Below are positions 989-62,229 of a DNA stretch of 64,000 nt, piece by piece (within the stretch, counting starts at the first letter, position 1; every line of letters starts with the position of its first letter). Origin of the DNA: a candidate division Zixibacteria bacterium RBG_16_53_22 (GTDB lineage Bacteria; Zixibacteria; MSB-5A5; UBA10806). The notes below the pieces were generated by a model. The model searched no databases. It saw only the letters and a list, made by a program, of their open reading frames with translations, and was not told where the DNA came from. The stretch lies in assembly GCA_001775395.1 (NCBI GenBank), contig MEWP01000069.1:16114-80113 (forward strand), given 5' to 3'. Made by a program: the position numbers and the translations under genes.

Positions 989-1040
989 CCGTCTCTAAAC
1001 ACAAATCCTCCGTCTGCCCAAATTCCTCTGGACCGAAACA
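989..1040 (-). mobile_element. orphan IS3-family left end (copy 1 of 6)
   Basis: TGTTTCGGTCCAGAGGAATTTGGGCAGACGGAGGATTTGTGTTTAGAGACGG aligns without gaps to the 52-mer directly upstream of the IS3 orfA at 16252. Confidence 0.7.
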
Positions 1041-1209
1041 GTCTTAAAATAAGGATTCATTGTTTCCGAATTGTCCGACGACGCACATTGTAGATATATC
1101 ACACAAACCAACGTTGACATCAGCCCTGACCGCGGCAGAGCAAAGCACAACCGACAGCAAAGCCGACGCAATGTGAGTTCTCCTGATCATCTCCAACCCC
1201 CTAATTGGA

Positions 1210-2595
1210 TTATAAATTCAGTCCTATGTGTCTTTTTATGAATTTACCATGGCCAATGTCGCCTATGAATTTGCCTTTTTTGGCGACTAATTTGCCCCGG
1301 CTTATCGTCGTATCCGGATATCCTGTCAGCTTTGCGCCCTCGAATGGCGACCAGTCGCAATTGGTTTGAAGATTCCTATATGATAGAGTGACTTTCCTTT
1401 GTGGATCAAACAAAACAAGGTCGGCATCGGAACCAACTGCGATTGTGCCTTTTTCCGGATACATCCCCATTAGCTTGGCAGGGTTGGTACAAAGTGCCCG
1501 CACAAGCTGATTTTCCGTGATGCGTTTCTTGCCAATCCCGTAAGTATACATCAACGGCAAGAGAGTCTCTACGCCGGGCAATCCGAATGGTATTTTCGTG
1601 AAATCGCCCTGCCACATCGCCTTCTGCTTAGTGGTGAAAGTGCAGGTGTCGGTCGCGACCGTAGAAACATCCCCGTCGGCAATTGCCTGCCATAATCGCT
1701 CCGAGTCGTCTTTCTTTTTTATCTGCGGGCAGGTGGCATAGAGGTGTCCGTTAGGCTTTTTGAAAACGGAATCGTCCAGCAAGAGATACTGCGGGCAGGT
1801 TTCGGCATAGACATTTAGCCCGCGCGCCTTTGCCTTGCTGATGATCTCTGCGCCATCAGCAGTTGACATATGCACTATATAGAGCTTGCCACCAGTCGCC
1901 TCTGCCCATGTCACGGCACGAGAGATAGCCTCGGCCTCGATGTAATTGGGGCGCGACAGGACGTGGCAATAAGCGCCGTATTTCTTCATGTCATTGGGAT
2001 TATGATAGCGGTTGATCAGAAGATCAAGCACCCTTACGGACTCCGCATGAACGCCCACCATGCCGCCAAATGTGGCGGTTTCCTCCAACGCTGCATAGAG
2101 CGCATCATCATCACTGATCATGCCCTCTTTGGCATATATCATGAACATCTTGAAGGTCGTGACCCCGTCGGCGGCAAGCTTCTTCAATTCATTCCTGGTT
2201 CTTTCATTCCAATCGGTTGGCACGGCATGCACAGCATAATCGACAGCGACCTTGCCGTCCGCCTCAGCACGACGAGCTTCGACAGCCTCACGAAGTGTCT
2301 TGCCTTTCTTCTGAATGGCGAAATCAATGACTGTGGTCACCCCGCCGCAGGCCGCCGACTTGGTGCCGTTTTCAAAATCGTCGGCCGACACAGTGCCGCA
2401 AAACGGCAACTGCAAATGCACATGCACATCGATTGCGCCGGGAAATATCATCTTGCCGTGCGCATCGATCGTCATACCGGCATCACCGGGAAGCGTCTGC
2501 GCGATGGCCGTGATTTTGCCCTTCTTTATACCAATGTCGGCCTTGTAGCTTCCCTCGGATGTTATGATTCGTCCGCCCGTGATCTTGAGGTCCAT
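1210..2595 (-). CDS. hydA: dihydropyrimidinase (D-hydantoinase)
   Basis: IDVHVH metal motif, GGVTTVIDF, FKMF carbamylated-Lys region, TDTC and GSDADLV; sits in a pyrimidine degradation operon. Confidence 0.93.
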   Translation of the reverse strand: MDLKITGGRIITSEGSYKADIGIKKGKITAIAQTLPGDAGMTIDAHGKMIFPGAIDVHVHLQLPFCGTVSADDFENGTKSAACGGVTTVIDFAIQKKGKTLREAVEARRAEADGKVAVDYAVHAVPTDWNERTRNELKKLAADGVTTFKMFMIYAKEGMISDDDALYAALEETATFGGMVGVHAESVRVLDLLINRYHNPNDMKKYGAYCHVLSRPNYIEAEAISRAVTWAEATGGKLYIVHMSTADGAEIISKAKARGLNVYAETCPQYLLLDDSVFKKPNGHLYATCPQIKKKDDSERLWQAIADGDVSTVATDTCTFTTKQKAMWQGDFTKIPFGLPGVETLLPLMYTYGIGKKRITENQLVRALCTNPAKLMGMYPEKGTIAVGSDADLVLFDPQRKVTLSYRNLQTNCDWSPFEGAKLTGYPDTTISRGKLVAKKGKFIGDIGHGKFIKRHIGLNL

Positions 2596-2619
2596 AGATC
2601 CTCCTTATATTGATAGTCT

Positions 2620-3846
2620 TTATGCCGCAACTAATTTAGCACAATCCCAAACAGGGCAGACCTGGACACAAAGTGAACAGCCCGTGCATCGGTTTCGATC
2701 AACCTTCGGAATTCTGTCGGGGCCGGCTGTCAGCGCCTGGTAGCCGGCATCACGGCAGGAGATCACACAGCGATCGCATTTTACGCAGGTTGCCTCGTCA
2801 ATCTGTGAAATCATTTTCCTTTCGCGGTCAAGATTGATGTGATCGGTGAGGAATGGAAGAGACTTGCCGATGAACTCCTCTATCCGAGTAAAACCATGAT
2901 CTTCCATGAAACCAGCGAACCCATCTTTCAATTCCTCGATTATTCCAAAACCATGAAACATGACAGCGGTGCAGAGTTGAACATTGGTGGCTCCCAAAAG
3001 GATGAACTCCACAGCGTCGCTCCAGGTCTCGATTCCGCCTATGCCGGAGACCTGAACCTGCAGGTCTAACGAAATGCCGGCGACCGCCTTCAAGGCGATT
3101 GGTTTTATCGCTGGGCCGGAGTATCCGCCATGAGTGCTTTTCCCGAAAACGTTGGGAAGAGGGGCCAATGTCTCCAGATCAACTCCTGCTATTACTGCCA
3201 CCGTGTTAATAGCTGAGATTGCATCAGCGCCAGCCTTGACCGCCGCCTTTGCCGGGACACGGATATCGGCGATGTTGGGCGTCATCTTGGCAATCACCGG
3301 AATTGTTGACACGCTTTTCACCCAGTCGGTCACCCTGGCCGTAACCTCGGGGTCCTGGCCAATTGCCATACCCATCCCTTTTTCGGGCATCCCGTGCGGG
3401 CAGGAAAAGTTGAGTTCGAGCATGTCGGCGCCGGCGTTCTGGCACATCCTGACAAGCTCCTGCCAGCCGACGCGATCGTTCCCGCCAGCCATGATACTTG
3501 CCACAAGTAGCTGCCGCGGGAATTGCGTCTTGATGTCGCCGATCTCTTTAAGCCAGATATCTAATGGCCGATCCGTGATAAGCTCGATATTCTCCAGCCC
3601 GTAGAGCTTCTTCGCCTCATCGGAACGGCCGGCGAATGATAACGATGCCAGCCTCGGAGTGACATTCGCCAGCAGGTCGCGGTCATGGGCCAACGTCTTC
3701 GTTACGGCGCCACCCCAGCCGGCCTCAAACGCCTGTTTTATCATTTCCCCTGTGCCTGTTGGCGGAGCTGAAGACAAGATGAATGGATTCGCCATCTCGA
3801 ATCCGCAGAACCTGACCGAGAGATTTGTCTGGGTGGCCATTCTCAT
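2620..3846 (-). CDS. preA: dihydropyrimidine dehydrogenase, FMN/Fe-S subunit PreA
   Basis: NPFILSSAPPT, GWGGAVTKT, LYGLENIELI, ELNFSCPHGM, GGYSGPA; C-terminal CVKCDRCVISC and CTGCSLCVQVC clusters. Confidence 0.92.
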   Translation of the reverse strand: MRMATQTNLSVRFCGFEMANPFILSSAPPTGTGEMIKQAFEAGWGGAVTKTLAHDRDLLANVTPRLASLSFAGRSDEAKKLYGLENIELITDRPLDIWLKEIGDIKTQFPRQLLVASIMAGGNDRVGWQELVRMCQNAGADMLELNFSCPHGMPEKGMGMAIGQDPEVTARVTDWVKSVSTIPVIAKMTPNIADIRVPAKAAVKAGADAISAINTVAVIAGVDLETLAPLPNVFGKSTHGGYSGPAIKPIALKAVAGISLDLQVQVSGIGGIETWSDAVEFILLGATNVQLCTAVMFHGFGIIEELKDGFAGFMEDHGFTRIEEFIGKSLPFLTDHINLDRERKMISQIDEATCVKCDRCVISCRDAGYQALTAGPDRIPKVDRNRCTGCSLCVQVCPVWDCAKLVAA

Positions 3847-3858
3847 AACAATGCTCCT

Positions 3859-5166
3859 TTATCGGGATTGCCTGTTTTCCGTGATGAATTTGTCGATTCC
3901 AAGCGCGGCGCATCTGCCATCCGCTACCGCTTGTACGGCCGTCGCACCACCATTGATAGCATCGCCGCCGGCAAAAACGCCCGGCATTGAAGTCGCGCCC
4001 GTTTCCTTATCGACAATGATCAAACCACGTGAATCGGTGGCTATTCCGCAGTTTCCTTCGAATGTTGCCTCCTGGCCTATGGCGAGAAGAATGTTGTCGG
4101 CTTCATAATCCTCTCCTGAAGAATCGATCATGATTGGCGCCGGTCGCCCAGTATCGTCAGGAGAACCAGGCATGGTCTTGGCAAATGTCACAACAAGCCT
4201 GCCGCCAGTCACAGAGAATCTGAGGGGCATATGGTTGAAATGGAATCTGACCCCGTTCTTTTTCGCCGATTGGATTTCTGATTTGAAAGCCGGCATGTCA
4301 TTTTCACTTCGTCGATAGAAAATCTCAACTTCGCATCCTGCAAGGCGCGCGCTCTGCGCAGCATCGATGGCGGTATTGCCCCCGCCAATAACGATGACAT
4401 TCCTGCCGAGATTGATCATGGGCGGTTTCCCGTGAAGCTCAGCGATTCTTCTATCCTTGAGAAATGATGCCGCCTGATACACGCCATCGATATCTGCCCC
4501 CTCTATGCAAAGAGGGGTTGCGCGATACGCGCCGATTCCAATGAAAATAGCGTCATATTTTTCCGAGAATTCTGCTAATTTTCCGATTTTCGAGCCCGTT
4601 ATGATCTTCGCGCCCATAGCCTTCACGTATTCGATTTCATCTTTGACCATTTCGGGGCTAAGGCGATACGATGGGATGCCATAGGTCAGAATTCCGCCGG
4701 GGAGATCTTCGGCCTCATGAATTTCTACGTCATATCCCAGTCTGCAAAGCTCAAATGCAGCCGAAAGCCCGGCCGGGCCGGAACCGATAATTCCTACCGA
4801 GAAACCGTTTGGTTCTTTGACAGGAAGGAGGCTCATGCCGTGCTGCCTGTCGTATTCCGCCACAAAGCGCTGCAACGCCCCAATCGCGATCGGCTTCTGA
4901 AGCTTCGTTGTGCACCTGAATTCGCAAAGCTCGCCGACCGGGCAGATCAACGCGCATGTTCCGGCGAGAACGTTGGACTCGCGCACGGTCTTGATCGCTC
5001 CCCGGAAGTTTCGTTGTGCGATCTGACGGATGAATTTCACTATATCGTTTGCCGCCGGGCATCCTTGACGGCAGGGGGCGTCAGCGCAAGAAAGACAGCG
5101 CGAAGCCTCTACGACCGCCTCCTGCGCGCTCATCAGGGGAGGAAGATAATTGTCGGCGTTCTTCAT
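3859..5166 (-). CDS. preT: dihydropyrimidine dehydrogenase, FAD/NAD(P)H subunit PreT (GltD-like)
   Basis: EASRCLSCADAPCRQGCP and CALICP Fe-S motifs; IGSGPAG and IGGGNTA Rossmann motifs; adjacent to preA. Confidence 0.88.
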   Translation of the reverse strand: MKNADNYLPPLMSAQEAVVEASRCLSCADAPCRQGCPAANDIVKFIRQIAQRNFRGAIKTVRESNVLAGTCALICPVGELCEFRCTTKLQKPIAIGALQRFVAEYDRQHGMSLLPVKEPNGFSVGIIGSGPAGLSAAFELCRLGYDVEIHEAEDLPGGILTYGIPSYRLSPEMVKDEIEYVKAMGAKIITGSKIGKLAEFSEKYDAIFIGIGAYRATPLCIEGADIDGVYQAASFLKDRRIAELHGKPPMINLGRNVIVIGGGNTAIDAAQSARLAGCEVEIFYRRSENDMPAFKSEIQSAKKNGVRFHFNHMPLRFSVTGGRLVVTFAKTMPGSPDDTGRPAPIMIDSSGEDYEADNILLAIGQEATFEGNCGIATDSRGLIIVDKETGATSMPGVFAGGDAINGGATAVQAVADGRCAALGIDKFITENRQSR

Positions 5167-5178
5167 CTGCGCTGGTTC

Positions 5179-6462
5179 TCAAAATACTTTTTTGAACGCC
5201 TGCTCCAAAATCGCAAGGGCTCTATCGATGTCGTCGTTTTCGATGCTAAGCGGTGGCGCTATCCTGATGACATTTCCATAGAGCCCGCCCTTGCCGATCA
5301 AGAGCCCCGCCTCTTTGGTCAGCTCGAAAATCTTCACGACTGTCTCGGAATCTGGCACTTTTTTGTCACCGATGATTTCAAGAGCAATCATCAGCCCCAT
5401 GCCGCGGACCTCCCCAATGAAGGGATATTTCTTCTGCATCCGCTTGAGTCTGTCCATGAAATAGCTTCCGGCCTCGGCGGCGTGAGCCGGAAGGTTCTCT
5501 TTCTCGACAACCTCGATCGTGGCCAGTGCCGCAGTGCAGGAAACAGGATTTCCTCCGAATGTCGAAATAGAAAAACCAGTCAATGATGATGCAACTTCAG
5601 ATGTCGTGATCGTCCCACCAATTGGGAAACCGTTGCCCATTCCCTTGGCGAATGTCATTATTTCGGGCTCGACATTCCAGTGCTCGATGCCGAACATCTT
5701 GCCGCCTGTTCGTCCAAAGCCCGTCTGCACCTCATCGCAAATGAAAACCCCGCCATATTTCCTGATGATACCCACCGCAACTTCAAAATACTCTTTCGGA
5801 GGGGTGACAAAGCCGCCGACGCCTTGTATCGGCTCAGCCAGGAAGGCGGCGACCCTGCCCGATGTCGTCGTCTGAATCAGCTCCTCCAGATCACGCGCGC
5901 AGGCTAAGTCGCATGATGGATACTCCAAATGGAATGCGCATCGATAGCAGTAGGGCGAATGCGCGTGCTTGATCCCGGCAACGGTGCTTCCAGCCTGACG
6001 CCACTTGCTGTGTGCCGTGAGATTGAGCGCCAGATTGGAGCGGCCGCTGTAGGCATGGCGCAGAGCGATCACCTCATCACAGCCGGTATGTTTCCGCGCC
6101 AGTAAGACTGCCGTCTCATCGGCCTCAGTTCCCGAATTAGTAAAGAAGCTTTGTTTGAGCTTTCCTGGAGTGATCACTGCCAGTTTCTCCGCCAGCTGCA
6201 CCTGCGGAATCGTCTGATACAGGGTTGACGTATGTTGGAGTCTGCCTATCTGCTCGATGACTCTGCCATTGACATGTGGATGTGAATGGCCGAGCATGGT
6301 TGTCAGAATTCCTCCAAAAAAATCGAGATACTCTTTGCCGTCGTTGTCATAAACGTGCTGGCCCCTGCCTTCCGTCAGCACCAACGGCTCAGCGTAATAA
6401 TTCTGCACACACGGCATCAAGAATTCTTTGTTCTTTTTTCTGATCTCTGTAGAATCCATCAA
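5179..6462 (-). CDS. class III PLP aminotransferase, probable beta-alanine aminotransferase
   Basis: NSGTEA, AEPIQGVGG, DEVQTGFGRTG, FAKGMGNG (PLP Lys), STFGGNP; lies between beta-ureidopropionase and preT. Confidence 0.85.
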   Translation of the reverse strand: MMDSTEIRKKNKEFLMPCVQNYYAEPLVLTEGRGQHVYDNDGKEYLDFFGGILTTMLGHSHPHVNGRVIEQIGRLQHTSTLYQTIPQVQLAEKLAVITPGKLKQSFFTNSGTEADETAVLLARKHTGCDEVIALRHAYSGRSNLALNLTAHSKWRQAGSTVAGIKHAHSPYCYRCAFHLEYPSCDLACARDLEELIQTTTSGRVAAFLAEPIQGVGGFVTPPKEYFEVAVGIIRKYGGVFICDEVQTGFGRTGGKMFGIEHWNVEPEIMTFAKGMGNGFPIGGTITTSEVASSLTGFSISTFGGNPVSCTAALATIEVVEKENLPAHAAEAGSYFMDRLKRMQKKYPFIGEVRGMGLMIALEIIGDKKVPDSETVVKIFELTKEAGLLIGKGGLYGNVIRIAPPLSIENDDIDRALAILEQAFKKVF

Positions 6463-6477
6463 TCATCACTCCATTAG

Positions 6478-7356
6478 TTATGGCAATAGCCGCTCTATGT
6501 CGCCATACGTTTCCGGCCTGCGGTCGCGGTAGAATTGCCAGACATTTCGGACCTCAAGTATCATGTCGAAATCGATCTCCGCCACAACCACTTCATCGAC
6601 ATCGCGTTTTGCTTGCGCCACGATACGTCCACGCGGGTCGCAGAAATAGCTTTTGCCGTAAAACTCGCCGATATTCCACGGCATCTCGCGCCCCACACGA
6701 TTGATCGCGCCCACGAAATAGCCGTTGGCCACAGCGTGGGCCGGCTGCTCTAACTCCCAGAGATATTCTGAGAGGCCTGCCACTGTCGCCGACGGATTAA
6801 ATACAATCTCGGCGCCGTTCATGCCGAGTATGCGCGCCCCCTCGGGAAAATGGCGATCGTAGCAAATGTAGACACCCACTGTTCCGTAGTGAGTCTGGAA
6901 AACCGGATATCCGAGATTCCCAGGCTTGAAATAGAACTTCTCCCAGAACCCTGGATGAACATGTGGAATATGATTCTTCCTGTATTTCCCCAGGAATTTG
7001 CCGTCGGCGTCGATCACGGCTGCTGTGTTATAATACACTCCAGCCATGACATTCTCGTAGATTGGCACGACCATCACGATACCGTGTTTTCGGGCGAGCT
7101 CTTGCATGAGCTTTGTTGTTGGCCCTTCGGGGATTTTTTCAGTCAATTCGTACCATTTCGGATTTTGCTCGGCGGGGAAATAGGGACCGTAAAAAAGCTC
7201 CTGCAGGCATAGAATCCTGACACCTTTTGCCGCCGCCTGCTCGATCAGGCTCAGATGTTTTTCAATCGCATCAGATTTTATCTTCTCCGGCAGGTCGTCG
7301 GTGGTGAACAGAGGATTTGACGCCTGGATCAGGCCGCACGTGATCTTTCTTGCCAT
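6478..7356 (-). CDS. pydC: beta-ureidopropionase (nitrilase superfamily)
   Basis: E-K-C triad in CLQELF, YRKNHIP and ICYDRHFPEG; WEKFYFKPGN is typical of N-carbamoyl-beta-alanine amidohydrolases. Confidence 0.88.
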   Translation of the reverse strand: MARKITCGLIQASNPLFTTDDLPEKIKSDAIEKHLSLIEQAAAKGVRILCLQELFYGPYFPAEQNPKWYELTEKIPEGPTTKLMQELARKHGIVMVVPIYENVMAGVYYNTAAVIDADGKFLGKYRKNHIPHVHPGFWEKFYFKPGNLGYPVFQTHYGTVGVYICYDRHFPEGARILGMNGAEIVFNPSATVAGLSEYLWELEQPAHAVANGYFVGAINRVGREMPWNIGEFYGKSYFCDPRGRIVAQAKRDVDEVVVAEIDFDMILEVRNVWQFYRDRRPETYGDIERLLP

Positions 7357-7377
7357 AACAGGTCTCCCTCGAAATTG

Positions 7378-8838
7378 TCAAAACCAACGGGAAATTATGA
7401 TTCTCTTGTCTGTGTAGAATTCGATGCCGTCGCGGCCGTACGCCTTCAAGTCGCCAAAGAACGACCGTTTGGCACCGCCAAACATGAAAAATGCCATCGG
7501 CGCCGGCACCCCGATGTTGACGCCGATCATTGAAATGCCAGCCTCATACTTGAATTTGCGGACAGCCTTACCGCTTTGTGTGAAAATAGATGTGGCATTG
7601 CCATATTCGCCTTGTTGAATGACCCTCAGCGCTTCATCGATATCATTGACTTTCATCAAACAGGCGACCGGGCCAAAGATCTCTTCGCGGGAAATTGTCA
7701 TCTCCGGTGTGACGTTGTCGAAAACGGAAGGCCCAAGGAAAAACCCCCTGAGATTTCCTGCAACTTGAGGCTTACGGCCGTCGAGAACCAACGCTGCCCC
7801 GTCTTTGATACCCTGTTCGATATATGATATCACCCGCTCTTTGTGTTTCTGAGAAATGACCGGGCCCAATGTCACTGATTCACTAAGGCCATTGCCAATC
7901 TTAAGCTTCTTGGCTGCCTCAACCAGCTTTCTTTTCAGCGGTTCATGAATATCTCCTACAGTCAAGACGATGCTTGCCGCCAGGCACCGCTCGCCGGCGC
8001 ATCCATAAATCGAATCGATGAGGTTGGCGACCGACTTGTCCAGATCGCAATCGGGCATGACCACCACGAAATTCTTGGCGCCGCCCAATGCTTGCACACG
8101 TTTGCCTTTAGCTGATGCCTCGCGATATACCGATTCCGCAATCTTGGAAGAGCCAACAAATGATATACCGACGACGTCAGGATTGGCAATTAGCGCCCTC
8201 GCCGCGTCGCCTGCTCCGTTGATTAGATTGATGACGCCTGGTGGGAAACCAACCTCGTCAACCAGCTCGAAGATCTTCTTCTGAGACATCGGTGTTTGTT
8301 CCGATGGCTTTACAACAAAAGTGTTGCCGCAGGCCACAGCCAACGGGAAAAACCATAACGGCACCATGGCTGGGAAATTGAAAGGCGTAATGCAGGAAAA
8401 TACCCCCAGGGGTTGTCGGACGACTTCGCAATCAACACCCGAGGCGACATCCTCAAGATTGGCCCCTTGCATTAAGCTTGGCACACCGCAAGCGACCTCG
8501 ACATTCTCGATCCCCCGACGTACCGAACCGCGCGCCTCAGCGATCGTCTTGCCGTTTTCGCTGGTCAGGATTTGAGAAATCTCCTCGAAATCCCGTTCCA
8601 GCAGCTCCCTGAGCTTGAAGAAATACCTGGCCCGAACAATAGGTGGCGTCTGCCGCCACTGCGTGAAGGCTCTTTTTGCTGCCCTGACAGCCTCGTCGAC
8701 TTCGGCTTTAGCTGCAGGCTTGACTATTGCCAGTTGTTCGCGTGTAGCCGGATTAATGACCTCAAGGCACTCTGTTGATATAGATTCGATCCATCTTCCA
8801 TCCACGTAATTTGGCACAACGGGGGAAACAGCTTTCAT
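7378..8838 (-). CDS. mmsA: CoA-acylating (methyl)malonate-semialdehyde dehydrogenase
   Basis: ITPFNFPAMVPLW, KPSEQTP, GGAKN, GERCLA (catalytic Cys), EEIFGP, IGVNIGVPAP. Confidence 0.92.
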   Translation of the reverse strand: MKAVSPVVPNYVDGRWIESISTECLEVINPATREQLAIVKPAAKAEVDEAVRAAKRAFTQWRQTPPIVRARYFFKLRELLERDFEEISQILTSENGKTIAEARGSVRRGIENVEVACGVPSLMQGANLEDVASGVDCEVVRQPLGVFSCITPFNFPAMVPLWFFPLAVACGNTFVVKPSEQTPMSQKKIFELVDEVGFPPGVINLINGAGDAARALIANPDVVGISFVGSSKIAESVYREASAKGKRVQALGGAKNFVVVMPDCDLDKSVANLIDSIYGCAGERCLAASIVLTVGDIHEPLKRKLVEAAKKLKIGNGLSESVTLGPVISQKHKERVISYIEQGIKDGAALVLDGRKPQVAGNLRGFFLGPSVFDNVTPEMTISREEIFGPVACLMKVNDIDEALRVIQQGEYGNATSIFTQSGKAVRKFKYEAGISMIGVNIGVPAPMAFFMFGGAKRSFFGDLKAYGRDGIEFYTDKRIIISRWF

Positions 8839-9048: not shown

Positions 9049-9100
9049 TGCTTCGGTTCGGATGAATTTGGACAGACGGAAGGTTTGAGGTAAGAGACGG
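9049..9100 (+). mobile_element. orphan IS3-family left end (copy 2, opposite orientation)
   Basis: TGCTTCGGTTCGGATGAATTTGGACAGACGGAAGGTTTGAGGTAAGAGACGG; similarity to the region upstream of orfA continues about 20 nt further. Confidence 0.72.
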
Positions 9101-9202
9101 TTCTGATTTGCTCTTGGGGTGGAATGGAGGATCTTGTGCCCGCGGCAAGCCCACGAGCATTTGTGAGATTACCATAAGGGTCGTAACTCCTTGAAAGACA
9201 AA

Positions 9203-9247
9203 TAGCGGCGCAGGGATTCGAACCCCGGACACGAGGATTATGATTCC
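9203..9247 (-). repeat. tRNA-Met 3' fragment, att core (distal end of island III)
   Basis: Exact 45-bp match to 62697-62741 (anticodon stem through discriminator base). Confidence 0.93.
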
Positions 9248-9536
9248 AAGCCAAAGATCTACAGTAAGTTAAAAGGATATAATAGCATGCGAAATGCGAG
9301 TGGAAAATATTTGCTCCGGAGTCTTAACTTAAAGAAACAACACACTACCAAGGTGATTCAGAACGTGGCCAGAATGCCAAACAAAACGCTTTTGAGCACC
9401 ATGGAAAAGCAGACGAGTGCATTCGTTTCAATTCGCCGCCAAACGCTGGATCGCCCGACAAAAGCCAAAGGCGTGTATCAAATTTGTGCTATGAAGTCAT
9501 GTAAAATACAACCCTCCTCTATAATACCTGACTAAG

Positions 9537-9588
9537 CCGTCTCCTAACTCAAATCTCCTATTTATGCAAATTCATTTGAACCGAAACA
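9537..9588 (-). mobile_element. orphan IS3-family left end (copy 3)
   Basis: TGTTTCGGTTCAAATGAATTTGCATAAATAGGAGATTTGAGTTAGGAGACGG; gapless alignment with the other copies. Confidence 0.65.
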
Positions 9589-9905
9589 GTGCCAGGCGTG
9601 TTACGGATTCGCACCGGATCTTCCATAGTTTTTGACTGGCATTGGGCGACCCTTGTTGCAACCCGGTTGCGGAACTCGTCTCGTAGCTCCCGCCATGAAT
9701 AATCATTATTATTTTAGAATATCGTTAGCCGGTCGGAAATTCTTATAATTAGCTCTGTAGCTCAAAAAAATAATTAGTGCTGGGAAAAGACCGATCGGAG
9801 CGGCCCGATGAATCGGCATAGCCCTGGAGGGAATAAATTTATAGATCGGGATTGCCAGCGAATATACAATCCAAAAAACGACGAATAGAGAAATGTAACG
9901 GAATC

Positions 9906-12158: not shown

Positions 12159-12282
12159 TGCAAATCCAACTTCATTATCTCTGTATTGCCGCCCATTCGA
12201 ACCGGCAATTCTGAGATTGGGATATTATATTGTTCCGACGGATTCCCCACGTCGGGATTTAAGATGACATGGGGATCAACCT

Positions 12283-12582
12283 CTATTGCAAGGGATTCTG
12301 CACTATGGCATGAATCCCATACTCGGCAAGATTATCATGTTTGGTAATGTCATTACCCCCGCTGTCAACACCAACCAAGACGACGGTTGATGGTGCTGCG
12401 GCATTCTGGGGATTTTGGGCGAAATAAATCCTTACAGAGACACATTGATCTTGGCTAATAATTGAAAGAATTTTCTTTGCGTCAAATAAAATACCCTCAT
12501 TTTTTTGAAAACTCTTAGCTTGCGCCCCGTTATAGGCAGCCACCCAATTTCTTGCGGTAGCCGCGTCAATATCATGCGGCAT
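12283..12582 (-). CDS. small hypothetical protein (99 aa)
   Basis: AGGAG RBS before the ATG at 12582; sequence AxxWxxxY...ILFD...VRIYF...VVLVGVDxxGND looks like a real fold; function unknown. Confidence 0.65.
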   Translation of the reverse strand: MPHDIDAATARNWVAAYNGAQAKSFQKNEGILFDAKKILSIISQDQCVSVRIYFAQNPQNAAAPSTVVLVGVDSGGNDITKHDNLAEYGIHAIVQNPLQ

Positions 12583-13013
12583 CTGCTTTCTCCTTTCCAA
12601 GAGGAATTTTCTTGAACATTCGGGCGACCTTTGATGGCCGCATAATCCAATAAATAATTCGAGCGGGGTCGAATTTGACCTGTCGATGCTGCGGCGACCA
12701 GCAATCTAAATCGATCTCCGGATCAATTCCAGAAATCAATCCGCTTTAGTCAAAGGACCAGAACCATAGAAAACTATTCGGCGGTTATAACTTAAATCTA
12801 TTACAAATAAATCCGTAATTAGTGATTTAGTCAAGAGTTATTTTGAGTATTTCTCTGCATCAGAGCCGAAATTTCGAATCCCAGCGAGAAATTAAGAGAA
12901 AGGCTATGGGCCCTGCAAATGATAAGGTTGGGGCCGGCATTAGCCAATTTCAAAATTCGCGAGTCAAAAAAGAACCGCCCGAACCAATCCTCAAGCGGCA
13001 ATTTACAGAAAGG

Positions 13014-14615: not shown

Positions 14616-14826
14616 TTCTCCGGGTAATGTATTATCACTATATTATGACCGTTAATTGGATTGTCAAGCGAAAGTACCCCTCCACTGCAATGCAGCACCG
14701 GCACCCACCGCCGGACCCAAATTAGATACTAAGTACCTAAATTTCTCGGCCCGACGCTCTCGCGCTCCCGTATGCAAGTTTCTGATTATCAATGAATTAT
14801 GGGCGAATCCTCCGGAGCATTCGGTT

Positions 14827-14842
14827 TGGCACGCACTCTGCA
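14827..14842 (+). promoter_or_regulatory. sigma54 -24/-12 promoter
   Basis: TGGCACG-CACT-CTGCA, one mismatch to TGGCACGNNNNTTGCW; divergent from the sigma54 activator and 85 nt upstream of the lipoprotein ATG. Confidence 0.75.
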
Positions 14843-14926
14843 ATTAATGCGGGCGACAGTGAAAGAGAAGAAAGAGCCGAAGGTCAAATAACCGAACCAA
14901 CAAACCAACAAAAACGGAGGAACGAA

Positions 14927-15595: not shown

Positions 15596-15614
15596 AACCG
15601 AACCCGACTTTTTC

Positions 15615-15640
15615 AGGCGGCCCCAGAGGCCGCCTTTATT
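15615..15640 (+). terminator. probable intrinsic terminator
   Basis: AGGCGGCC-ccaga-GGCCGCCT hairpin followed by TTATT, 20 nt after the lipoprotein stop. Confidence 0.65.
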
Positions 15641-15790
15641 ATTTTATCCAAACGCGGTTTCCGGCATACGAAGAAGATTCCCAATTTGAGTATTAAGTAC
15701 ACAAACCAGGCAACAGGTCCAACCATCCTGCGCTGTCATAATCCCATGCCATCACCAATCTTAATTCTATGTTTGTCTAGCCGCGGAACC

Positions 15791-54802: not shown

Positions 54803-54923
54803 AAAGCGGTGGTCTGATATATATCTTTTGCAATAATGTGAATGAATCAAGCCTGCTGATTGGCATCTGAATTATCAATTTCAGTTTTTGCAATTCAAAA
54901 AGCACAAATTATACGCCAGTACC

Positions 54924-55137
54924 TATGATACTTCATACTGCCGATGACACCGTTTGTCCAGCCGTTAATTTGCCTTTGAGCACTTCATAAGAAGCTTTCC
55001 CGTTTGAGGATCAGAGTCGCGTAATTTAAGACCCTTAGCTTCCAGCGTATTTCCCAGTCAGTCTTCACCGTCATGCCTGCCACCAGTTAACCCTCCAAAT
55101 CTTATCAATAGTGTCAATCGAAATCAGAAGTTTCGCA
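54924..55137 (-). mobile_element. internally deleted IS481-family-like element (about 214 bp)
   Basis: Minus strand reads MAGMTVKTDWEIRWKLRVLNYA (IS481-like N-terminus), then in another frame GKASYEVLKGKL (C-terminus-like); imperfect 26-bp inverted ends ending in TGACA. Confidence 0.5.
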
Positions 55138-55171
55138 GTTGACGTGGCGGTATTATGGATAAATGTAACTT

Positions 55172-55402
55172 CTTGTAAGTCCTTGAAAGATAATAGCGGC
55201 GCAGGGATTCGAACCCCGGACACGAGGATTATGATTCCCAGCCGAAGAAATATAATAAATTACGGGTAATCATCGACTTGTATACGGCCAGAGAAAAATG
55301 AGGATTTTTGCTGATGGCATTAAGAGGACCATTCATGCTCGATGAAATGCAGAGCATGGCCAATTAAGTATTTTGAGCACCAGACAGCACCGGAAAGCAG
55401 CA
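55172..55402. repeat. 231-bp direct repeat (beta end), copy 2
   Basis: Matches 16563-16793 with 3 mismatches. Confidence 0.93.
55194..55238 (-). repeat. tRNA-Met 3' fragment, att core (island I/II junction)
   Basis: Exact 45-bp match to 62697-62741. Confidence 0.93.
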
Positions 55403-55611
55403 GTCAATGGTATTGTAAAGCAAGCGGTTGAACTCTTTGTGAATTAGCCGTAACAAAGGGCGACCGGCATACTCTGATCCTCTGCCGACTGGTTTTTGCC
55501 CACTTGAACATTATGATTCTCATATTACTGACTTTCGGGTCCCAATCCCGAAATACTCTTTCCAGAGCTATATTCAATGTGCCACTGACAACTACTGTCA
55601 GTGGGCAAAAT

Positions 55612-55645
55612 AAAAAACGGGCACCCGAAGAAATCCTGGTGCCCG
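55612..55645 (-). terminator. probable intrinsic terminator of the Rrf2 gene
   Basis: CGGGCACC/GGTGCCCG 8-bp stem followed by T6 on the minus strand. Confidence 0.6.
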
Positions 55646-55668
55646 CCCGAATGACTAAAAGAGGGGCC

Positions 55669-56124
55669 TTAAGCCTTGAGAACTTTCGCCTTGCGGCCAT
55701 TGCGGCCCGGGTAGAACTTCTCGTAAGGGATATTCCCGAAGTTGACGGCCCCCAAATCCCGCACTAACCCTCGTTTAATCCGATCAAACTGCTTAAAGGC
55801 CGGGCATCTGCCCTTGCGGTGGCCGGACCGCTTGGCCTCAGGTATGGTGCAGTTGGCTGGCTCAAGGGGGCCGTCGATGGCCTCGATGACCTGCAGGAAA
55901 GTAATATCCTTCCGCGGCCGGGCCAGTTGGTAACCCCCCGCCACCCCCCTTACGCTCTTCAGGAATCCCTGCCGAACCAGCGCCTTGAGGACCTTGGCCA
56001 GGTATTCCCGGGGGATACCCTCGGCTCGGGCGATCTCGTTGATCGAGGCCAGCCCCCTGTCCTCCAGGGAGGCCACGAAGAATAGGGCGTGCAGGGCGTA
56101 GTCAGCTTTCTTGGTGATTCTCAT
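55669..56124 (-). CDS. Rrf2-family transcriptional regulator (RsrR-like ligand pattern)
   Basis: ADYALHAL, YLAKVL, SVRGVAGGYQLAR wHTH; D8, H12, C92, C107. Confidence 0.9.
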   Translation of the reverse strand: MRITKKADYALHALFFVASLEDRGLASINEIARAEGIPREYLAKVLKALVRQGFLKSVRGVAGGYQLARPRKDITFLQVIEAIDGPLEPANCTIPEAKRSGHRKGRCPAFKQFDRIKRGLVRDLGAVNFGNIPYEKFYPGRNGRKAKVLKA

Positions 56125-56254
56125 CGCGATTCTCTCCCTATTTAGACAATTTCAAGGTTCTTCTCCCAAACGATTTATGGCGGTAACGGGCGGGCGATGT
56201 CAATGAAAATCAGCGGCCCGTTGCCACTAACACGGGTTTAGTGGCAATCAAGAC

Positions 56255-56276
56255 GGGCCGCTCTTGCGAGCGGCCC
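56255..56276 (-). terminator. hairpin downstream of the FG-GAP gene
   Basis: GGGCCGCTC-GCAA-GAGCGGCCC on the minus strand; weak U-tract. Confidence 0.5.
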
Positions 56277-56298
56277 AGCAACCCGGTATGGACAATTT

Positions 56299-58836
56299 TC
56301 AGTCAGAGGTTCCGGTCTTGCCTCTTGATTTTAATACCGGGCGCAGAATCGGAGCTATCGGCTTTTCCTCCTTGACGGGCTCCGAAATGACCTTTTCAGG
56401 CGTTTCTTTGCCTTTGAGTTCGCGTGAAATGACTGGCCCCCTGCCTGCTGGAGTGCAATCGTCGCAATAGAGCAGCGCAGGCTGGCCCCCCTTGAGGTAT
56501 GACACATAGTATGTAATGTCTATCCCATTGGTGCTGCAGGTGCCGTTGACATCCATGGCGGCATAGAACGGGAATATTAGCGGCGGGCAGTCGCAGGAGT
56601 CTTTGGGAGCGCTGCCGCCTTTAAGATAGGTGACTCCGTATGTAACATCGATACCGTTCGGCGCGCCGCTGCCGTTGATATCACCGGGGAGATAGGGGCA
56701 GCCGCCACCGAGAAGATTGATTAAGATCGAAACATTGTTGGAGTTCTCATTTGCCACTGCCAAATCATTATCCCCATCGCCGTCAAGATCGGAGGCGAAT
56801 ACAGAGCGGGGATATTTATCCGCGCCATAATTGCCTCCCGGGTAGTATGTGCCAGAACCGCCATTTATTAAAACCGTGACGTTACCCGACCAATTGTTTG
56901 CGGTCGCCAGGTCATTATCGCCGTCACTATCAAAATCGGAGGCAATAATAGAATTGGCACCATCCGCAGCCAAATAGTTGACTGCCGCCTGATAGGTTCC
57001 ATCGCCATTGTTTATCAGGACGGACACGTTGTCGGAAATCCAGTTTGCCACCGCCAGGTCGTTATCACCATCGCCATCAAGATCGGAGGCAAAAATGGAT
57101 TGGGGATCATTCCCTACCCCGTAATTGACTGCCGCCTGAAATGTCCCGTTACCATAGTTCTTCAGAACCGAAATGTTGTCGGAATTTGAATTTGCTACCG
57201 CTAAATCTTTATACCCATCGCCGTCGAGGTCGGATGCGAAGATGGAATAAGGCCAGGATCCCGCACCATAATTGACCGCCGCCTGAAAAGTCCCATCACC
57301 ATTGTTTCTCAAAATGGAGACATTACCGGAAGTTCTGTTTGCTGTCGACAGATCGTTATCGCCATCGCTATCCAGATCAGTGGCAAAGACGGAGGCGGTG
57401 CCGGGTCCGGCAGGATAATTGACGGCAGCCTGGTATGTCCCGTTGCCGTTGTTTATCAGGACTGATACATTATTGGAATTCAGATTTGCAACAGCCAGAT
57501 CATTATCCCCATCACCGTCAAGATCGGAGGCGTACACCGAATAAGGATTGTCTCCGGTCCTATATTTGATAGCCGGCAGATATATCCCATCACCGTTGTT
57601 CATGAGGATCGAGACGCTGTCGTAAATTGCATTTGTCACGGCCAGGTCGTTATCTCCATCACCGTCAAGGTCGGATCCAAAAACGGACCGTGGGGCGTTT
57701 CCGGCGGCATAATTAACTGCCACGCGATATGTTCCATTTCCGTTGTTATTAAAGACCGAGACATTGCTGGAAGCGACATTTGCCGCCGCCAGGTCATTAT
57801 CTCCATCGGCGTCAAAATCGGTAGCGACGATGAAACGGGTACCGGATCCCGCTCGGTAATTGACAGCTGTCTGATATGTCCCATCACCGTTGTTCTTCAA
57901 GACCGACATGTCGCTGTTATTCCAATTGGCTGTCGCCAGGTCATTATCCCCATCACCATCAAGGTCGGAGGCATATATGGAAAAGGGGGCGTCACCCGTC
58001 TCGTAATTAACGGCTGTTTGAAATGTACCGTTTCCATTGTTCTTCAATATCGAGGCGGAGCCCATTGCTATAAAATTTGCCACAGCCAGGTCGTTATCGC
58101 CGTCACCATCGAGGTCGGAGGCAAAGACTGCGGCGGAACCGTCACCCGCATCATAATGTACCGCCGGTATATACGTGCCATTGCCGCTGTTTATCAAAAT
58201 GGCGACGTTGTCAGAATCACCATTTACAGATGCCAGGTCTTTGTCGCCATCGCCGTCAAGATCAGAAGCAAAGACGGAAACAGCGCTGCCTCCAGTCATG
58301 TAATTTATGGCCGCCTGGTACGTGCCATTGCCGTTGTTCTTCAGCACCGAGATGTTGTTAGAAATGCTGTTTGCCACGGCAAGGTCGTTATCCAAATCGC
58401 CATCAAGATCGGAGACATAAATGGAAGCGGGGTAGTCTCCCGCCCCATAATTGACAGCCGACAGATATGTGCCATTACCGAAATTCAACAGGATAGAGAT
58501 ACTATCGGAAGATGAATTTGCCACCGCCAGATCATTATCACCATCGCCGTCAAGATCAGAGGCAAAGACGGACAAAGGACCATCTCCCGCAGCGTAATTG
58601 ACAGATTGCAGAAAAGTGCCATCACCGATGTTCATCAGGACCGAGACGTCGTCGGTATAACCATTTGCCGTGACCAAATCTTTGTCTCCGTCGCTGTCAA
58701 GATCGGAGGCAAAGACGGAATAAGGAGAGGTTCCCGTCCCATAGTCTATCCGTGCGCTGAAGATAGGCTCGAAGCCAAGAGAACTGGCAACAATGGCAAG
58801 CATTGCGATAAGCAAATTAATCACAAGGCGTTTCAT
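56299..58836 (-). CDS. secreted FG-GAP/VCBS repeat protein (14 repeats) with C-terminal dockerin-like domain
   Basis: Signal peptide; 14 DxDxDGDxDLxxxN units (two 7-blade propellers inferred); GDINGSGAPNGIDVTY...DVNGTCSTNGIDITY. Confidence 0.9.
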   Translation of the reverse strand: MKRLVINLLIAMLAIVASSLGFEPIFSARIDYGTGTSPYSVFASDLDSDGDKDLVTANGYTDDVSVLMNIGDGTFLQSVNYAAGDGPLSVFASDLDGDGDNDLAVANSSSDSISILLNFGNGTYLSAVNYGAGDYPASIYVSDLDGDLDNDLAVANSISNNISVLKNNGNGTYQAAINYMTGGSAVSVFASDLDGDGDKDLASVNGDSDNVAILINSGNGTYIPAVHYDAGDGSAAVFASDLDGDGDNDLAVANFIAMGSASILKNNGNGTFQTAVNYETGDAPFSIYASDLDGDGDNDLATANWNNSDMSVLKNNGDGTYQTAVNYRAGSGTRFIVATDFDADGDNDLAAANVASSNVSVFNNNGNGTYRVAVNYAAGNAPRSVFGSDLDGDGDNDLAVTNAIYDSVSILMNNGDGIYLPAIKYRTGDNPYSVYASDLDGDGDNDLAVANLNSNNVSVLINNGNGTYQAAVNYPAGPGTASVFATDLDSDGDNDLSTANRTSGNVSILRNNGDGTFQAAVNYGAGSWPYSIFASDLDGDGYKDLAVANSNSDNISVLKNYGNGTFQAAVNYGVGNDPQSIFASDLDGDGDNDLAVANWISDNVSVLINNGDGTYQAAVNYLAADGANSIIASDFDSDGDNDLATANNWSGNVTVLINGGSGTYYPGGNYGADKYPRSVFASDLDGDGDNDLAVANENSNNVSILINLLGGGCPYLPGDINGSGAPNGIDVTYGVTYLKGGSAPKDSCDCPPLIFPFYAAMDVNGTCSTNGIDITYYVSYLKGGQPALLYCDDCTPAGRGPVISRELKGKETPEKVISEPVKEEKPIAPILRPVLKSRGKTGTSD

Positions 58837-59041
58837 AACGACCTCCGGGATGAGGAAAATTTATGGCCTAAAGTTATTTCTTTCCTTTAAGTATTAATAA
58901 GGTACTGCCACGCCCAAAGATGTAAGATCAAGGATGTAATATTAATATAATATCGTTTCAAAAATTAACAAGAGGATTTAACGGATAGCGTTACCTCCAA
59001 GGTATCATTTCGGTGCCTTCGGGTCACCCTACCCGGTTTTT

Positions 59042-61897
59042 CTATGGCGCCGGAGGGCAATCCTGGCAATAAAGCAGGGCCGCCTGCTGGCCTTTTAGGT
59101 ATGTTACGAAATAGACGATATCTATACCATTGAAGGCACAGTTGCCGTTTACGTCTCCAGCAGCATAGAAGGGGAACGCCATCGGCGGGCAATCGCAGGA
59201 GTCTCTGGGAGCGTTGCCGCCTTTCAGATAGGTGACTCCGTATGTAACATCGATACCGTTCGGCGCGCCGCTGCCGTTGATATCACCGGGAATGTAGAGA
59301 CATCCAAATGATTCCCGAACGACCAGGGAAACCGGCATCGGGGCTGAAGGCGTTCCCGGGTCGTTCGAATTTATCTGGATATGACCGTTATAGATGCTGT
59401 CGGGAACGGACGTAGCATCAAGCGTGATCTGACCGACCAAACTATCGCCCGGGGCGATCGTGTCGGCGGACGGGGAAACGAATAGCCAGGTGTTGAGGGC
59501 CGGCGATGACTCGATGGCAGATAAGGATACAAAAAGCGGGGCCTGGCCCGAATTTTTGACAACAAAATCGTGCGACTCAATTTCACCCTGCAAAAGTGTA
59601 TCGATTATCGAAGCGGGGTAAAATGACATGTGGGGTGCCATACTCAACTCAATCGAAACATCATCGATATATATGCCATCCTCTTGGCTTGATCCGTCGG
59701 AATCGAGGCGAAAACGTAGACGAGCATCGGATTGCCCAACCAGGGCCGCCAGATCGAAACTGCGCTCCACAAATGCCGGCATGGAACCGGTAATCGGCGG
59801 GCCGAGTCGAATCCAGTTTATGCTATCCGGAGAACCCTCGACATGGAGCGAATCCCCTCCGGCCGGTAGCGTACCCCTGACCTGAAATCTCAAATTGGCG
59901 GCTGCTGCATGGCTCAGGTCGAGATCAAAAAGCGATTCCAGGAAGCTGTCCGTATTGTCCCGGTATTGCGTGTTCGGGGAATCAGCAACGGAGAGGTTTC
60001 CTGTAGATGAGTAAAGAGCGGTCAGGCCCCAGAAAGCAAATGTCCCTCCGGTTTTCCAATAACCCAGGCCGTCTTCAAATGAATCGGCAAACGAAGACGC
60101 CCCTGGCGAGACAGTGTATGGGTGCATCTGGCCCCCGAGCGGCCAGAAGGCGTGGGTTTCCCCGTTCCGGACGGCCTTGATAAAATAGTAAATGGTGCCG
60201 CCGAGTTCGCCCGGTATCTGGGACGTGAAATTAAAGCTATCGACAGATATCATCGCAAGCCGGACAAAATCCCCGACTTCCCCCGCCCGGTAATAGAGGA
60301 AAACGCTGTCGAGTTCCCCTGTAACGGCGGTATTGATAATCAGCGGGTCATTGGGGGTGGCGAATATTATGGGACGGTGATCGATGATAATATCGCCGGC
60401 GGGATGGGAATAAATGGCCCGGCCGACATCGAGGATCCCGGAACCATAGGCGTTATCGGGGGCATCGAACCTGTCCGCAGTTGCCATCAGAGCCTCGCGG
60501 ACCATCATAGGAGTCCAATTGGGGTGCGCAGAAAATAGCACGCCGCATGCGCCTCCGACAAGGGGCGTTGAGAGCGATGTGCCGGAGGCGGTGTAGTAGC
60601 CATGAATATCGTAAGGACTTACACAAGTTGTGCCGACTCCCCGGGCGCAAACCTCGGGCTTGATACGCCCATCATATGTAGGGCCCCATGATGAGAAGCC
60701 GGCAAGTATGCCTTGCGAGTCGACAGCTCCACAGGCAATGACAGAATCGCCATCAGCGGGGGCGACGATGGAGCCGCTTATATTACCCTCGTTGCCCATG
60801 GCAGTGGCCACGGCAATTCCATTGTAGGCGGCCAGGTCGGCGGCGATTGTCACGATAGTGGAATTGCCATCGATCTGGCTGTAATCGTAATCGCCTTGCC
60901 CGGAGTCGAACCAGCGATATCCCAGAGAAGCAGAGATAACGGAAGCGCCGATGGAGTCGGCCCACTGCGCCCCGGCGGCCCAGTTGTCCTCCTCGATATG
61001 CCGCTCGCTGGAAATATCCTCCGTCTTGGCCAGGACGAAATGGGCCAAGTACGAGGGCCCATATAAAAATCCGCTGGCCTCACCACCGAGCGTGGACCAG
61101 GTCATGGTGCCGTGATCAGGTTGCCCGCCAAGATCCTGGCTGGGATCGTAGTCAGTGTTATTGTCATGGTTAATGAAATCGTATTGGGCAATCAGCCGTC
61201 CGCCGGAGATGATCGCCTGGAAAGCATCATGCCCTTGCCTGTAGCCGGTGTCCATCATACAGACGATCACGCCCTGGCCTTTGAATCCCAGCTCGTGCGC
61301 CGAGATGACATTAATCTGTTCAAGCTGGGCTTGCGACTGCCCGTAGTTGAGCGATATAAGGTTAGCATCAGGAATGATCGGCTCGGTGGGCAGCTCGGCG
61401 CCCATGCGCGCATATGAAACCGGTTTTATATAGCGCACGAATGGGAAAGCCGCTATGGCTGCAAGCTGCCCGCCGGTAGCGTAAACCGAGATGGCATTGA
61501 ACCATTTAAGCTCATGCCGCAATTCGGCGCCGGTGGAAAGCACGGCATCGATATGCGACCGGCTGAGAGGCAAGTCACGGAAATCGAGGATATTTTCCTT
61601 TCCGCGGGATTTGAGCCGGCGATCCAACGTTGAAGGGGAAAGGGTTGACTGCGCCAAATTGAGGGCATTTATGTATTGAACCTGACCTGAAATTCCCTTA
61701 TCAGTGAAAAAGACGATGACAGGAATTGTGGACTCAATCGGAATTTGACTAAGGCTCAGAGCCAATCCTGGTGAGATTGTCGGAATCTCCTTTTCCATGA
61801 AAAGCGTAGTGGCATCATTCCATGAAAGGGGAACATCGCTTCCCACAACCGATAATGGACAGAGCAACGTCAAAAATATAAGAGCATGTCGAATCAT
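59042..61897 (-). CDS. secreted S8 (subtilisin-family) protease with C-terminal dockerin-like domain
   Basis: Signal peptide; MMDTG (Asp), DHGT (His), GTSLSTP (Ser); dockerin-like tail. Confidence 0.92.
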   Translation of the reverse strand: MIRHALIFLTLLCPLSVVGSDVPLSWNDATTLFMEKEIPTISPGLALSLSQIPIESTIPVIVFFTDKGISGQVQYINALNLAQSTLSPSTLDRRLKSRGKENILDFRDLPLSRSHIDAVLSTGAELRHELKWFNAISVYATGGQLAAIAAFPFVRYIKPVSYARMGAELPTEPIIPDANLISLNYGQSQAQLEQINVISAHELGFKGQGVIVCMMDTGYRQGHDAFQAIISGGRLIAQYDFINHDNNTDYDPSQDLGGQPDHGTMTWSTLGGEASGFLYGPSYLAHFVLAKTEDISSERHIEEDNWAAGAQWADSIGASVISASLGYRWFDSGQGDYDYSQIDGNSTIVTIAADLAAYNGIAVATAMGNEGNISGSIVAPADGDSVIACGAVDSQGILAGFSSWGPTYDGRIKPEVCARGVGTTCVSPYDIHGYYTASGTSLSTPLVGGACGVLFSAHPNWTPMMVREALMATADRFDAPDNAYGSGILDVGRAIYSHPAGDIIIDHRPIIFATPNDPLIINTAVTGELDSVFLYYRAGEVGDFVRLAMISVDSFNFTSQIPGELGGTIYYFIKAVRNGETHAFWPLGGQMHPYTVSPGASSFADSFEDGLGYWKTGGTFAFWGLTALYSSTGNLSVADSPNTQYRDNTDSFLESLFDLDLSHAAAANLRFQVRGTLPAGGDSLHVEGSPDSINWIRLGPPITGSMPAFVERSFDLAALVGQSDARLRFRLDSDGSSQEDGIYIDDVSIELSMAPHMSFYPASIIDTLLQGEIESHDFVVKNSGQAPLFVSLSAIESSPALNTWLFVSPSADTIAPGDSLVGQITLDATSVPDSIYNGHIQINSNDPGTPSAPMPVSLVVRESFGCLYIPGDINGSGAPNGIDVTYGVTYLKGGNAPRDSCDCPPMAFPFYAAGDVNGNCAFNGIDIVYFVTYLKGQQAALLYCQDCPPAP

Positions 61898-62177
61898 CGC
61901 GGCTCCCTTAAAGTGAGTGAAGTCAAAAAAGCAAAGCTACTCCAAAGATAATACCGTTTGATGGTTTGTCAAGCCAACCTCAACAGGTATTGGATGACTG
62001 GGCAATGGCATTAATGGGCCCTTTATTAATTTAAATTATATTTAATTGACGCAAATTCAACTATTGGCTGGGGACAGTTATTTGAAGCCTGTTTCCTATA
62101 TTGTCTGGCAACAAGTTACGGGCGGTGTCCCAAATTCGTGCTATAAAATTAGGCGCAAAATACTGAGCTACCCAAAT

Positions 62178-62229
62178 CTTTCTCTTAATTCAAACCCTCT
62201 ATCTGTCCAGATTCATCTGAACCGAAATA
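62178..62229 (-). mobile_element. orphan IS3-family left end (copy 6)
   Basis: TATTTCGGTTCAGATGAATCTGGACAGATAGAGGGTTTGAATTAAGAGAAAG; fused to the integrase remnant. Confidence 0.7.

Follow-up and report, generated by a model that had tools for sequence, protein, structure and literature searches.

Six orphan left ends of an IS3-family element are probably old relics in a tandem island array at a Zixibacteria tRNA-Met gene

What do six copies of one 52-nt motif mark along 64 kb of DNA from the candidate division Zixibacteria bacterium RBG_16_53_22 (contig MEWP01000069.1, positions 16,114–80,113; this whole stretch of 64,000 nt is the window hereafter)? The original prediction took them for left ends of an IS3-family insertion sequence (IS), and proposed that this IS lineage assembles the local genomic islands by one-ended transposition or rearrangement of adjacent DNA, leaving its left ends behind as delimiters of modules. 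Our analysis bears out the first proposal and does not support the second. Three integrative islands, bounded by attachment (att) repeats, stand here in a decayed tandem array at tRNA-Met, and the motif copies are probably old IS remnants that decayed independently in the dispensable DNA of an array built by a tyrosine integrase, one stub arm having been duplicated.

The six copies, numbered c1–c6 by position in the window, align without gaps at 989, 9049, 9537, 16271, 30893 and 62178, as first described. A profile built from them recovers exactly these six from the window (E values from 1e-16 to 8e-14); the next-best match in the window has E = 0.078 and the best in 20 shuffled windows E = 2.5. 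The profile finds no seventh copy in the window, and a scan of the window with the 28-nt tip alone, which would also catch a right end, returns no further copy. With the motif written in the TGTTTCGG orientation, the minus strand bears five copies and the plus strand one, c2 (9049–9100), which corrects the strand picture first given for a motif that is itself real. The TG...GGACA terminus ascribed to the whole set stands for part of it only: the TG start is kept in four window copies, and c4 (GATTTCGG) and c6 (TATTTCGG) start without it. Pairwise identity among the six is 36–43/52 (69–83%), and because of this mutual divergence of 17–31% the copies are old or come from different sublineages.

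The identity of the motif is best read from intact relatives. Behind c4, on the minus strand, lies the IS3 orfA that had been noted there, truncated (HTH_Tnp_1, E = 3.5e-11). A search with this fragment returns thousands of transposase OrfA proteins of 115–118 amino acids, the best at 90–94% identity, and the contigs encoding two of those best matches hold complete elements. One such element (in L015; contigs of relatives are numbered L0xx) is 1,538 bp long, with a 118-amino-acid orfA, an A-AAA-AAA-G slippery site in the orfA/orfB overlap and an orfB in frame −1, open across the orfA overlap and encoding a 338-amino-acid rve transposase. This OrfB passes the NCBIfam IS3 model NF033516 (162.8 bits, cutoff 160), and its end-to-end alignment to the IS481 model NF033577 scores 214.3 bits, not reaching the cutoff of 224; because OrfB passes the one and falls just under the other, model scores place the L015-type element in the IS3 family near the IS481 border.

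Intact relatives carry TGTTTGACTTCAGATGAAATTGGACAGATAGAGGGTTTGAACTAAGAGACGG about 40 nt upstream of orfA, and the contig flanks diverge exactly at its TG. The intact termini start TGTTTGAC and end ACATACA, forming imperfect inverted repeats of the type 5'-TG ... CA-3'. Their left and right inverted repeats (IRL and IRR; the latter TGTATGTCTTCAAAC.AATTTGGACAC...) have about the first 27 nt in common, differ from nt 28 inward and agree at 25/52 positions overall. The window copies match the L015 IRL at 36–43/52 positions versus 20–26/52 for its IRR, and over nt 29–52 all six fit the IRL (17–21/24) and the IRR at only 4–8/24. Behind the IRL, intact elements have a leader of about 30 nt, which is also present behind c1, c2 and c4. 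Since the IRL match extends beyond the part shared with the IRR, and since the leader is conserved, the IS3-family left-end identification is, on sequence comparison, correct: the original prediction had staked it on the IRL of intact IS3-family elements, such IRLs from metagenomes do match, and all six window copies are of IRL type. Stubs in L050 and L028 even bear the tip variant of the window, TTTCGGTTC, and match window copies at up to 46/52 positions.

With the IS911, IS2, IS3 and IS150 types of the IS3 family the element shares an HTH_Tnp_1 orfA, a −1 orfB behind an A-AAA-AAA-G site, an rve/DDE transposase, imperfect TG...CA repeats and a length of about 1.5 kb in intact relatives. It departs from them in that OrfB has a helix-turn-helix (HTH) region of its own and an end-to-end match to the IS481 model, in that IRL and IRR agree in only about the first 27 nt, and in that the window holds left-end fragments only. 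The HTH plus rve transposase architecture and the TGT termini recall the IS481 family, whereas IS481 has a single open reading frame and our element has a separate orfA with a frameshift site and stays below the IS481 cutoff. The nearest named homologues of orfA, and of a dehydrogenase truncated at c5 (below), come from metagenome-assembled genomes of candidate division Zixibacteria; together with the type IX secretion domains of the region (below), they suggest that the host is probably Zixibacteria-like. The element belongs to an undescribed IS lineage with orfA, a −1 frameshift and an orfB with an IS481-like transposase. As to a target duplication of 3–4 bp, no intact copy in the metagenome contigs has matching flanks, in assemblies that are unreliable across the repeat: several contigs agree in one IS flank and not in the other.

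How much of the element survives differs from copy to copy. The IS body was originally described as missing behind five copies and reduced to a truncated orfA behind c4; all six copies are indeed orphans and orfB is nowhere in the window (tblastn with OrfA and OrfB returns only the orfA fragment at 16040–16252), but IS homology runs past 52 nt in five of them, all except c5. On the minus strand, c1 (968–1040) comprises the IRL and leader, IS nt 1 to about 73, with its tip at 1040 facing the 3' end of a pyrimidine-catabolism operon. The plus-strand c2 (9049–9145) spans IS nt 1 to about 96, with the IRL, the leader and the decayed start of orfA; its tip at 9049 faces the 5' end of the same operon, and some 30 nt separate its inner end from the last att repeat. 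The remaining copies are all on the minus strand: c3 (9399–9588) has its IRL at 9537–9588 followed by about 140 nt of strongly decayed inner sequence; c4 (16040–16322), the longest, keeps about 280 nt reaching IS nt 342, namely an IRL without terminal TG, the leader and roughly two-thirds of orfA, whose start codon was lost to an internal deletion of about 60 nt; c5 (30893–30944) is a bare 52-nt IRL, its tip adjoining a truncated acyl-CoA dehydrogenase gene and its inner end a 33-codon open frame (30794–30892); and c6 (62166–62229) is an IRL without terminal TG (IS nt 1–64 by BLAST) whose tip adjoins an integrase remnant.

Against the intact L015 element BLAST reaches nt 73, 85, 55, 342, exactly 52 and 64 for c1 to c6, respectively, extents that are lower bounds for copies so diverged; a gapped alignment carries c2 to about nt 96. 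By BLAST the stub lengths had seemed to cluster at 50–85 nt, a hint of a special mechanism that we discarded, as the window stubs range from 52 to about 280 nt. The motif TATAGCAC-AATTTG, common to c1, c3 and c6, falls in a weak nine-way alignment under the orfA start of intact elements, which suggests that these three copies may also keep a decayed orfA start; the same placement, for all that the match is weak, led us to abandon the motif as a nested right end or as the core of a miniature inverted-repeat transposable element (MITE). The absence of a matching right end, reported from the start, holds: neither the 28-nt tip scan nor an alignment search finds an IRR in the window, and local alignments of the DNA behind the stubs to the IRR score no better than shuffles. 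Three resemblances seen by eye came to nothing. The 33-codon frame inside c5 looked like a MogA/MoaB N-terminus and has no match in Pfam, NCBIfam or PDB searches; a stretch about 400 nt inside c1 (530–600, GGTTCAAGCCC...), like the 3' half of a tRNA, is unsupported by ARAGORN and Rfam; and a tRNA-like fragment inside the unit that c6 shares with L028 has no Rfam support.

If the stubs are IS left ends, do they also delimit the islands? The borders lie elsewhere. The tRNA-Met gene (CAU anticodon; 62696–62771, minus strand) is the attachment site of an array of four att repeats, all on the minus strand: the first (62671–62741) comprises the 46 nt of the tRNA 3' end and about 24 nt downstream, the second (55172–55238) and third (16559–16629) are direct repeats of that 3' end, and the fourth (9176–9247) marks the distal end. 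Each has a sharply bounded, identical core of about 66–70 nt, beyond which the flanks diverge. Between them lie three tandem units (55239–62670, 16630–55171 and 9248–16558), whose tRNA-distal arms are homologous (16630–16793 versus 55239–55402, 228/231). Because direct repeats of the tRNA-Met 3' end bound the units, we attribute the array to successive site-specific integration of the tyrosine-integrase type. The middle unit, 38.5 kb long, lacks an integrase and bears clusters for respiration and aromatic degradation; where integrative islands accrete in tandem at a tRNA gene, such integrase-less, att-flanked units, akin to cis-mobilizable elements (CIMEs), are known to occur. Four direct tRNA 3' repeats, an integrase beside the tRNA, homologous arms and the integrase-less 16630–55171 all follow that pattern; what sets this array apart is that its integrases are IS-cut pseudogenes and that the intact orthologue is unusually small (178 amino acids). 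The IS ends stand about 75–440 nt from the att repeats, not at them: c6 is about 440 nt and c4 about 235 nt away, each within an integrase remnant; c2 falls just beyond the last att repeat, and c3 is in the third unit, about 290 nt in from its distal end. Neither c1 nor c5 bears any relation to the att sites.

These positions bear directly on assembly of the islands by one-ended transposition or adjacent-DNA rearrangement. Known one-ended systems (ISEcp1, IS91 and the Tn3 type) need an intact transposase beside the end, and the unit that they mobilize is flanked by a target duplication; our locus resembles them in having a single recognizable end next to cargo and differs in having neither. 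The tips do adjoin truncated genes, every stub lies between functionally different gene clusters and the window shows left ends only, all as one would expect were left ends the delimiters of modules. Yet the island borders are tRNA-derived repeats rather than IS ends, the orfA fragment at 16040–16252 is the only transposase sequence near any stub, and the relatives described below bear orphan right ends. The triplets outside the six tips read GTC, GAT, GTG, CCT, CCC and CCT (plus strand) and give no pair for any inverted combination, so that the proposed check for target duplications turned out negative at the six window tips. Two of the junctions, at c4 and c6, probably go back to one event and lack the TG. 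For the window copies, then, no transposase, second end or target duplication was found, and a lone left end without transposase cannot move DNA. Moreover, IS3-family elements transpose by a copy-out/paste-in route whose intermediates are a figure-eight and a circle with the two ends joined, so both are required (PMC3299598, PMC2909936). We regard the building of these islands by one-ended events as very unlikely.

The integrase pseudogene at 62227–62571 (plus strand) is what c6, cutting at codon 65, has left of a small tyrosine recombinase: its C-terminal 114 codons, with the C-terminus of the catalytic domain; a second integrase remnant at 16320–16450 (plus strand) has the same IS junction, at c4, and is further deleted downstream. 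Such remnants occupy the tRNA-proximal ends of the first and third units. A relative (L069) has an intact orthologous integrase of 178 amino acids (2583–3119; 90% identity) beside tRNA-Met with no IS, and homology between the window and this contig begins exactly at the IS tip, at integrase codon 65; the first 64 codons are nowhere in the window. With the dehydrogenase gene at c5, the two remnants confirm that IS tips cut genes here. On their outer sides c4 and c6 adjoin the same integrase sequence, with the junction at one and the same nucleotide, and the two IRLs have derived substitutions in common at positions 2 and 20. Their last two to three 'motif' bases belong to the native Ile codon of the integrase, which is why the terminal TG is absent. 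Having one common IS/integrase junction, c4 and c6 are not independent and probably descend, to judge from these sequences, from a single ancestral insertion, so that at least five separate old insertions lie behind the six stubs.

The island integrase is itself unusual, consisting of the catalytic domain only, and all 39 homologues that we found are at most 189 amino acids long. In L069 it is preceded by a ThiS/SAMP2-like gene, a gene for 400 amino acids without family match and a weakly JAB-like gene; this group may represent ubiquitin-like conjugation cargo.

We therefore favour, as the probable history, ordinary insertion and decay. Old IS insertions would have landed in the dispensable DNA of the array that the tyrosine integrase built, at or near borders between gene clusters where the remnants now lie, disrupting the island integrase and the acyl-CoA dehydrogenase gene. 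Ordinary deletions would then have taken the transposase genes and right ends together with adjacent DNA, so that stubs of 52 to about 280 nt were left, and a segment comprising a stub, the integrase remnant and an att repeat would have been duplicated within the array to give c4 and c6. With no transposase in the window and two stubs without terminal TG, the stubs would now be inert scars. Such stubs resemble the solo inverted repeats and IS remnants of IS-rich or decaying genomes, which are likewise transposase-less terminal fragments, mutually diverged and lying in pseudogenes and intergenic DNA. Nothing essential distinguishes them; the oddity is that the remnants in the window are all left ends.

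Three points weigh against this history. All five independent remnants are left ends, a marginally unlikely outcome (5:0, two-sided p ~ 0.06) that it leaves unexplained, although the excess of left over right among five independent events is not significant. The identity between c4 and c6 falls with distance from the att repeat, from 132/134 beside it to 121/128 in the integrase remnant and 41/52 in the IRL, and the drop at the IS/integrase boundary (16271–16450 versus 62178–62357; Fisher p = 0.004) is one that simple co-descent of the two copies does not predict, the IRL being far more diverged; conversion by other IS copies and two hits at one site are possibilities. Finally, the data are those of the window only, from which it cannot be shown that stubs are no commoner at junctions than elsewhere in the genome.

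Relatives show how general such orphan ends are. A scan of metagenomes with an IRL-specific pattern yields 33 loci, many of them contig ends inside intact copies. Left-end stubs of about 40–140 nt occur in L027 (two), L028, L036, L037, L038 (two), L041, L042, L046 and L050, and right-end stubs of 68 and 59 nt in L027. In L070 (1532–1560) a 16-nt IRR tip is fused by its inner side to the orthologous integrase at codon 61. Orphan ends, right ends included, are thus a general feature of this IS group. A pattern for the genome collection (TTCGGTYCNNANNAATNNGGNCAGA) proved too specific to the tip variant of the window: its 12 matches are all due to chance, with no similarity beyond the pattern. Scans of viral contigs with IRL and IRR patterns gave no matches. 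Two of the stubs in relatives lie near tRNA genes, one (L036, 994–1162) 26 nt downstream of tRNA-Asn and one (L042, 123–596) about 300 nt downstream of tRNA-Ser, echoing the tRNA-linked c2, c4 and c6.

Some of these loci raise the question of whether the IS lineage chooses targets that resemble its own ends. In L044 (1–156, direct) and L047 (5806–5883, inverted) an intact copy interrupts a resident IRL exactly after its nt 77, and a third contig (L030, 3082–3158) breaks at the same point; the three loci have different flanks and the point lies just before the orfA ribosome-binding site, which suggests a self-insertion hot spot at nt 77 of the resident IRL. Targeting of IS-like ends would account for these three loci and for integrases beside tRNA-Met being cut within 12 nt of one another in two lineages: the cut in L070 lies 12 nt from the window junction (62227), and there the native gene has CGAAACA, matching the IS tip (L069, 2760–2790), next to which stands an IRL stub in the window and the 16-nt IRR stub in L070. 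We give this idea a small chance of being right. Were it so, the repeated knockout of island integrases would lock islands into fixed tandem arrays and end stubs would be hot spots for further insertion, making this an IS that immobilizes integrative elements.

The same insertions at nt 77 of resident IRLs could also be taken as a sign that the stubs are non-autonomous, MITE-like elements, or retained sites for transposase binding or targeting, still acted upon in trans. Consistent with such a role, c2 and c3 are inverted with respect to each other at a distance of 540 bp, and stub units recur with different surroundings: the whole 190-nt c3 is found in L027 at 87% identity with a different outer flank, and about 150 nt of c6 in L028 at 76% with different flanks beyond the tip. 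The c2–c3 pair, however, has no target duplication, spans an att site and belongs to two different units; c1, c3 and c6 have no second end; a divergence of 17–31% is not that of near-identical copies; and the inner sequence common to c3 and c6 may be the decayed orfA start of the weak alignment described above. An active MITE-like role for the stubs is accordingly very improbable.

What lies between the stubs invites a last alternative, in which the modules were once flanked by complete IS copies that acted as arms of composite transposons or as recombination substrates (homologous recombination), helped to join the modules and then decayed. The tips of the inverted pair c1 and c2 face inward on an 8-kb, complete-looking operon for reductive pyrimidine catabolism (1210–8838, minus strand), with genes for an amidohydrolase, DPD-like subunits, an aminotransferase, a CN hydrolase and an aldehyde dehydrogenase. 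From c3 to c6 the copies are direct repeats that separate other clusters; c5 sits between a respiratory cluster (17403–30376; a two-component system, an alternative-complex-III-like domain set and several cytochrome c genes) and one for anaerobic degradation of aromatic compounds. This orientation pattern has a chance expectation of 1 in 4, though, and as the outer ends and any target duplications are gone, nothing specific can be demonstrated. Every stub is found in a pseudogene or between clusters of different function, and inter-cluster DNA and pseudogenes are where any surviving insertion would be expected anyway. Joining of modules by once-complete IS copies is hence unlikely, with a minor but appreciable chance of having played a part.

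The first gene of the aromatic cluster is the truncated acyl-CoA dehydrogenase of the glutaryl-CoA type (3' part, 30945–31487, plus strand), which lacks about 200 N-terminal codons and whose reading frame is open right up to the c5 tip. Its nearest homologue (L058) is full length bar an assembly frameshift; the locus is not syntenic and could not serve as the empty site for c5. Further genes of aromatic degradation (32841–44671) encode a CoA ligase, subunits of a molybdoenzyme of the xanthine-dehydrogenase type that resembles 4-hydroxybenzoyl-CoA reductase, and, similar to class I benzoyl-CoA reductase, three HGD-D and two BcrAD/BadFG proteins. In the tRNA-proximal unit, twelve tandem 147-bp units (56748–58749) lie within the gene for an 845-amino-acid FG-GAP repeat protein (56299–58836, minus strand), beside which are genes for an S8 peptidase (59042–61897) and an Rrf2 regulator (55669–56124).

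The region also bears type IX secretion C-terminal domains. A remnant of such a sorting domain (16820–16993, minus strand; E = 1e-4) lies just inside the distal arm of the middle unit; at the homologous position L050 has an intact secreted protein with LVIVD repeats, which ends there. Beside att repeat 2, the noncoding stretch 54923–55141 is about 75% conserved in L038 (8790–8896) and L050 (6454–6576), and in L038 this counterpart directly adjoins a left-end stub at the stub's inner side.

The six stubs are an ordinary set of IS relics and reveal no new mode of island assembly. Annotators should enter the repeats as left-end remnants of an IS3-family element, and the region as a tandem array of islands at tRNA-Met, now decayed, in which two integrase pseudogenes are disrupted by the IS. 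The locus documents an undescribed lineage at the IS3/IS481 border in uncultured, probably Zixibacteria-like, sediment bacteria, and it places their metabolic clusters in this region within old mobile DNA.

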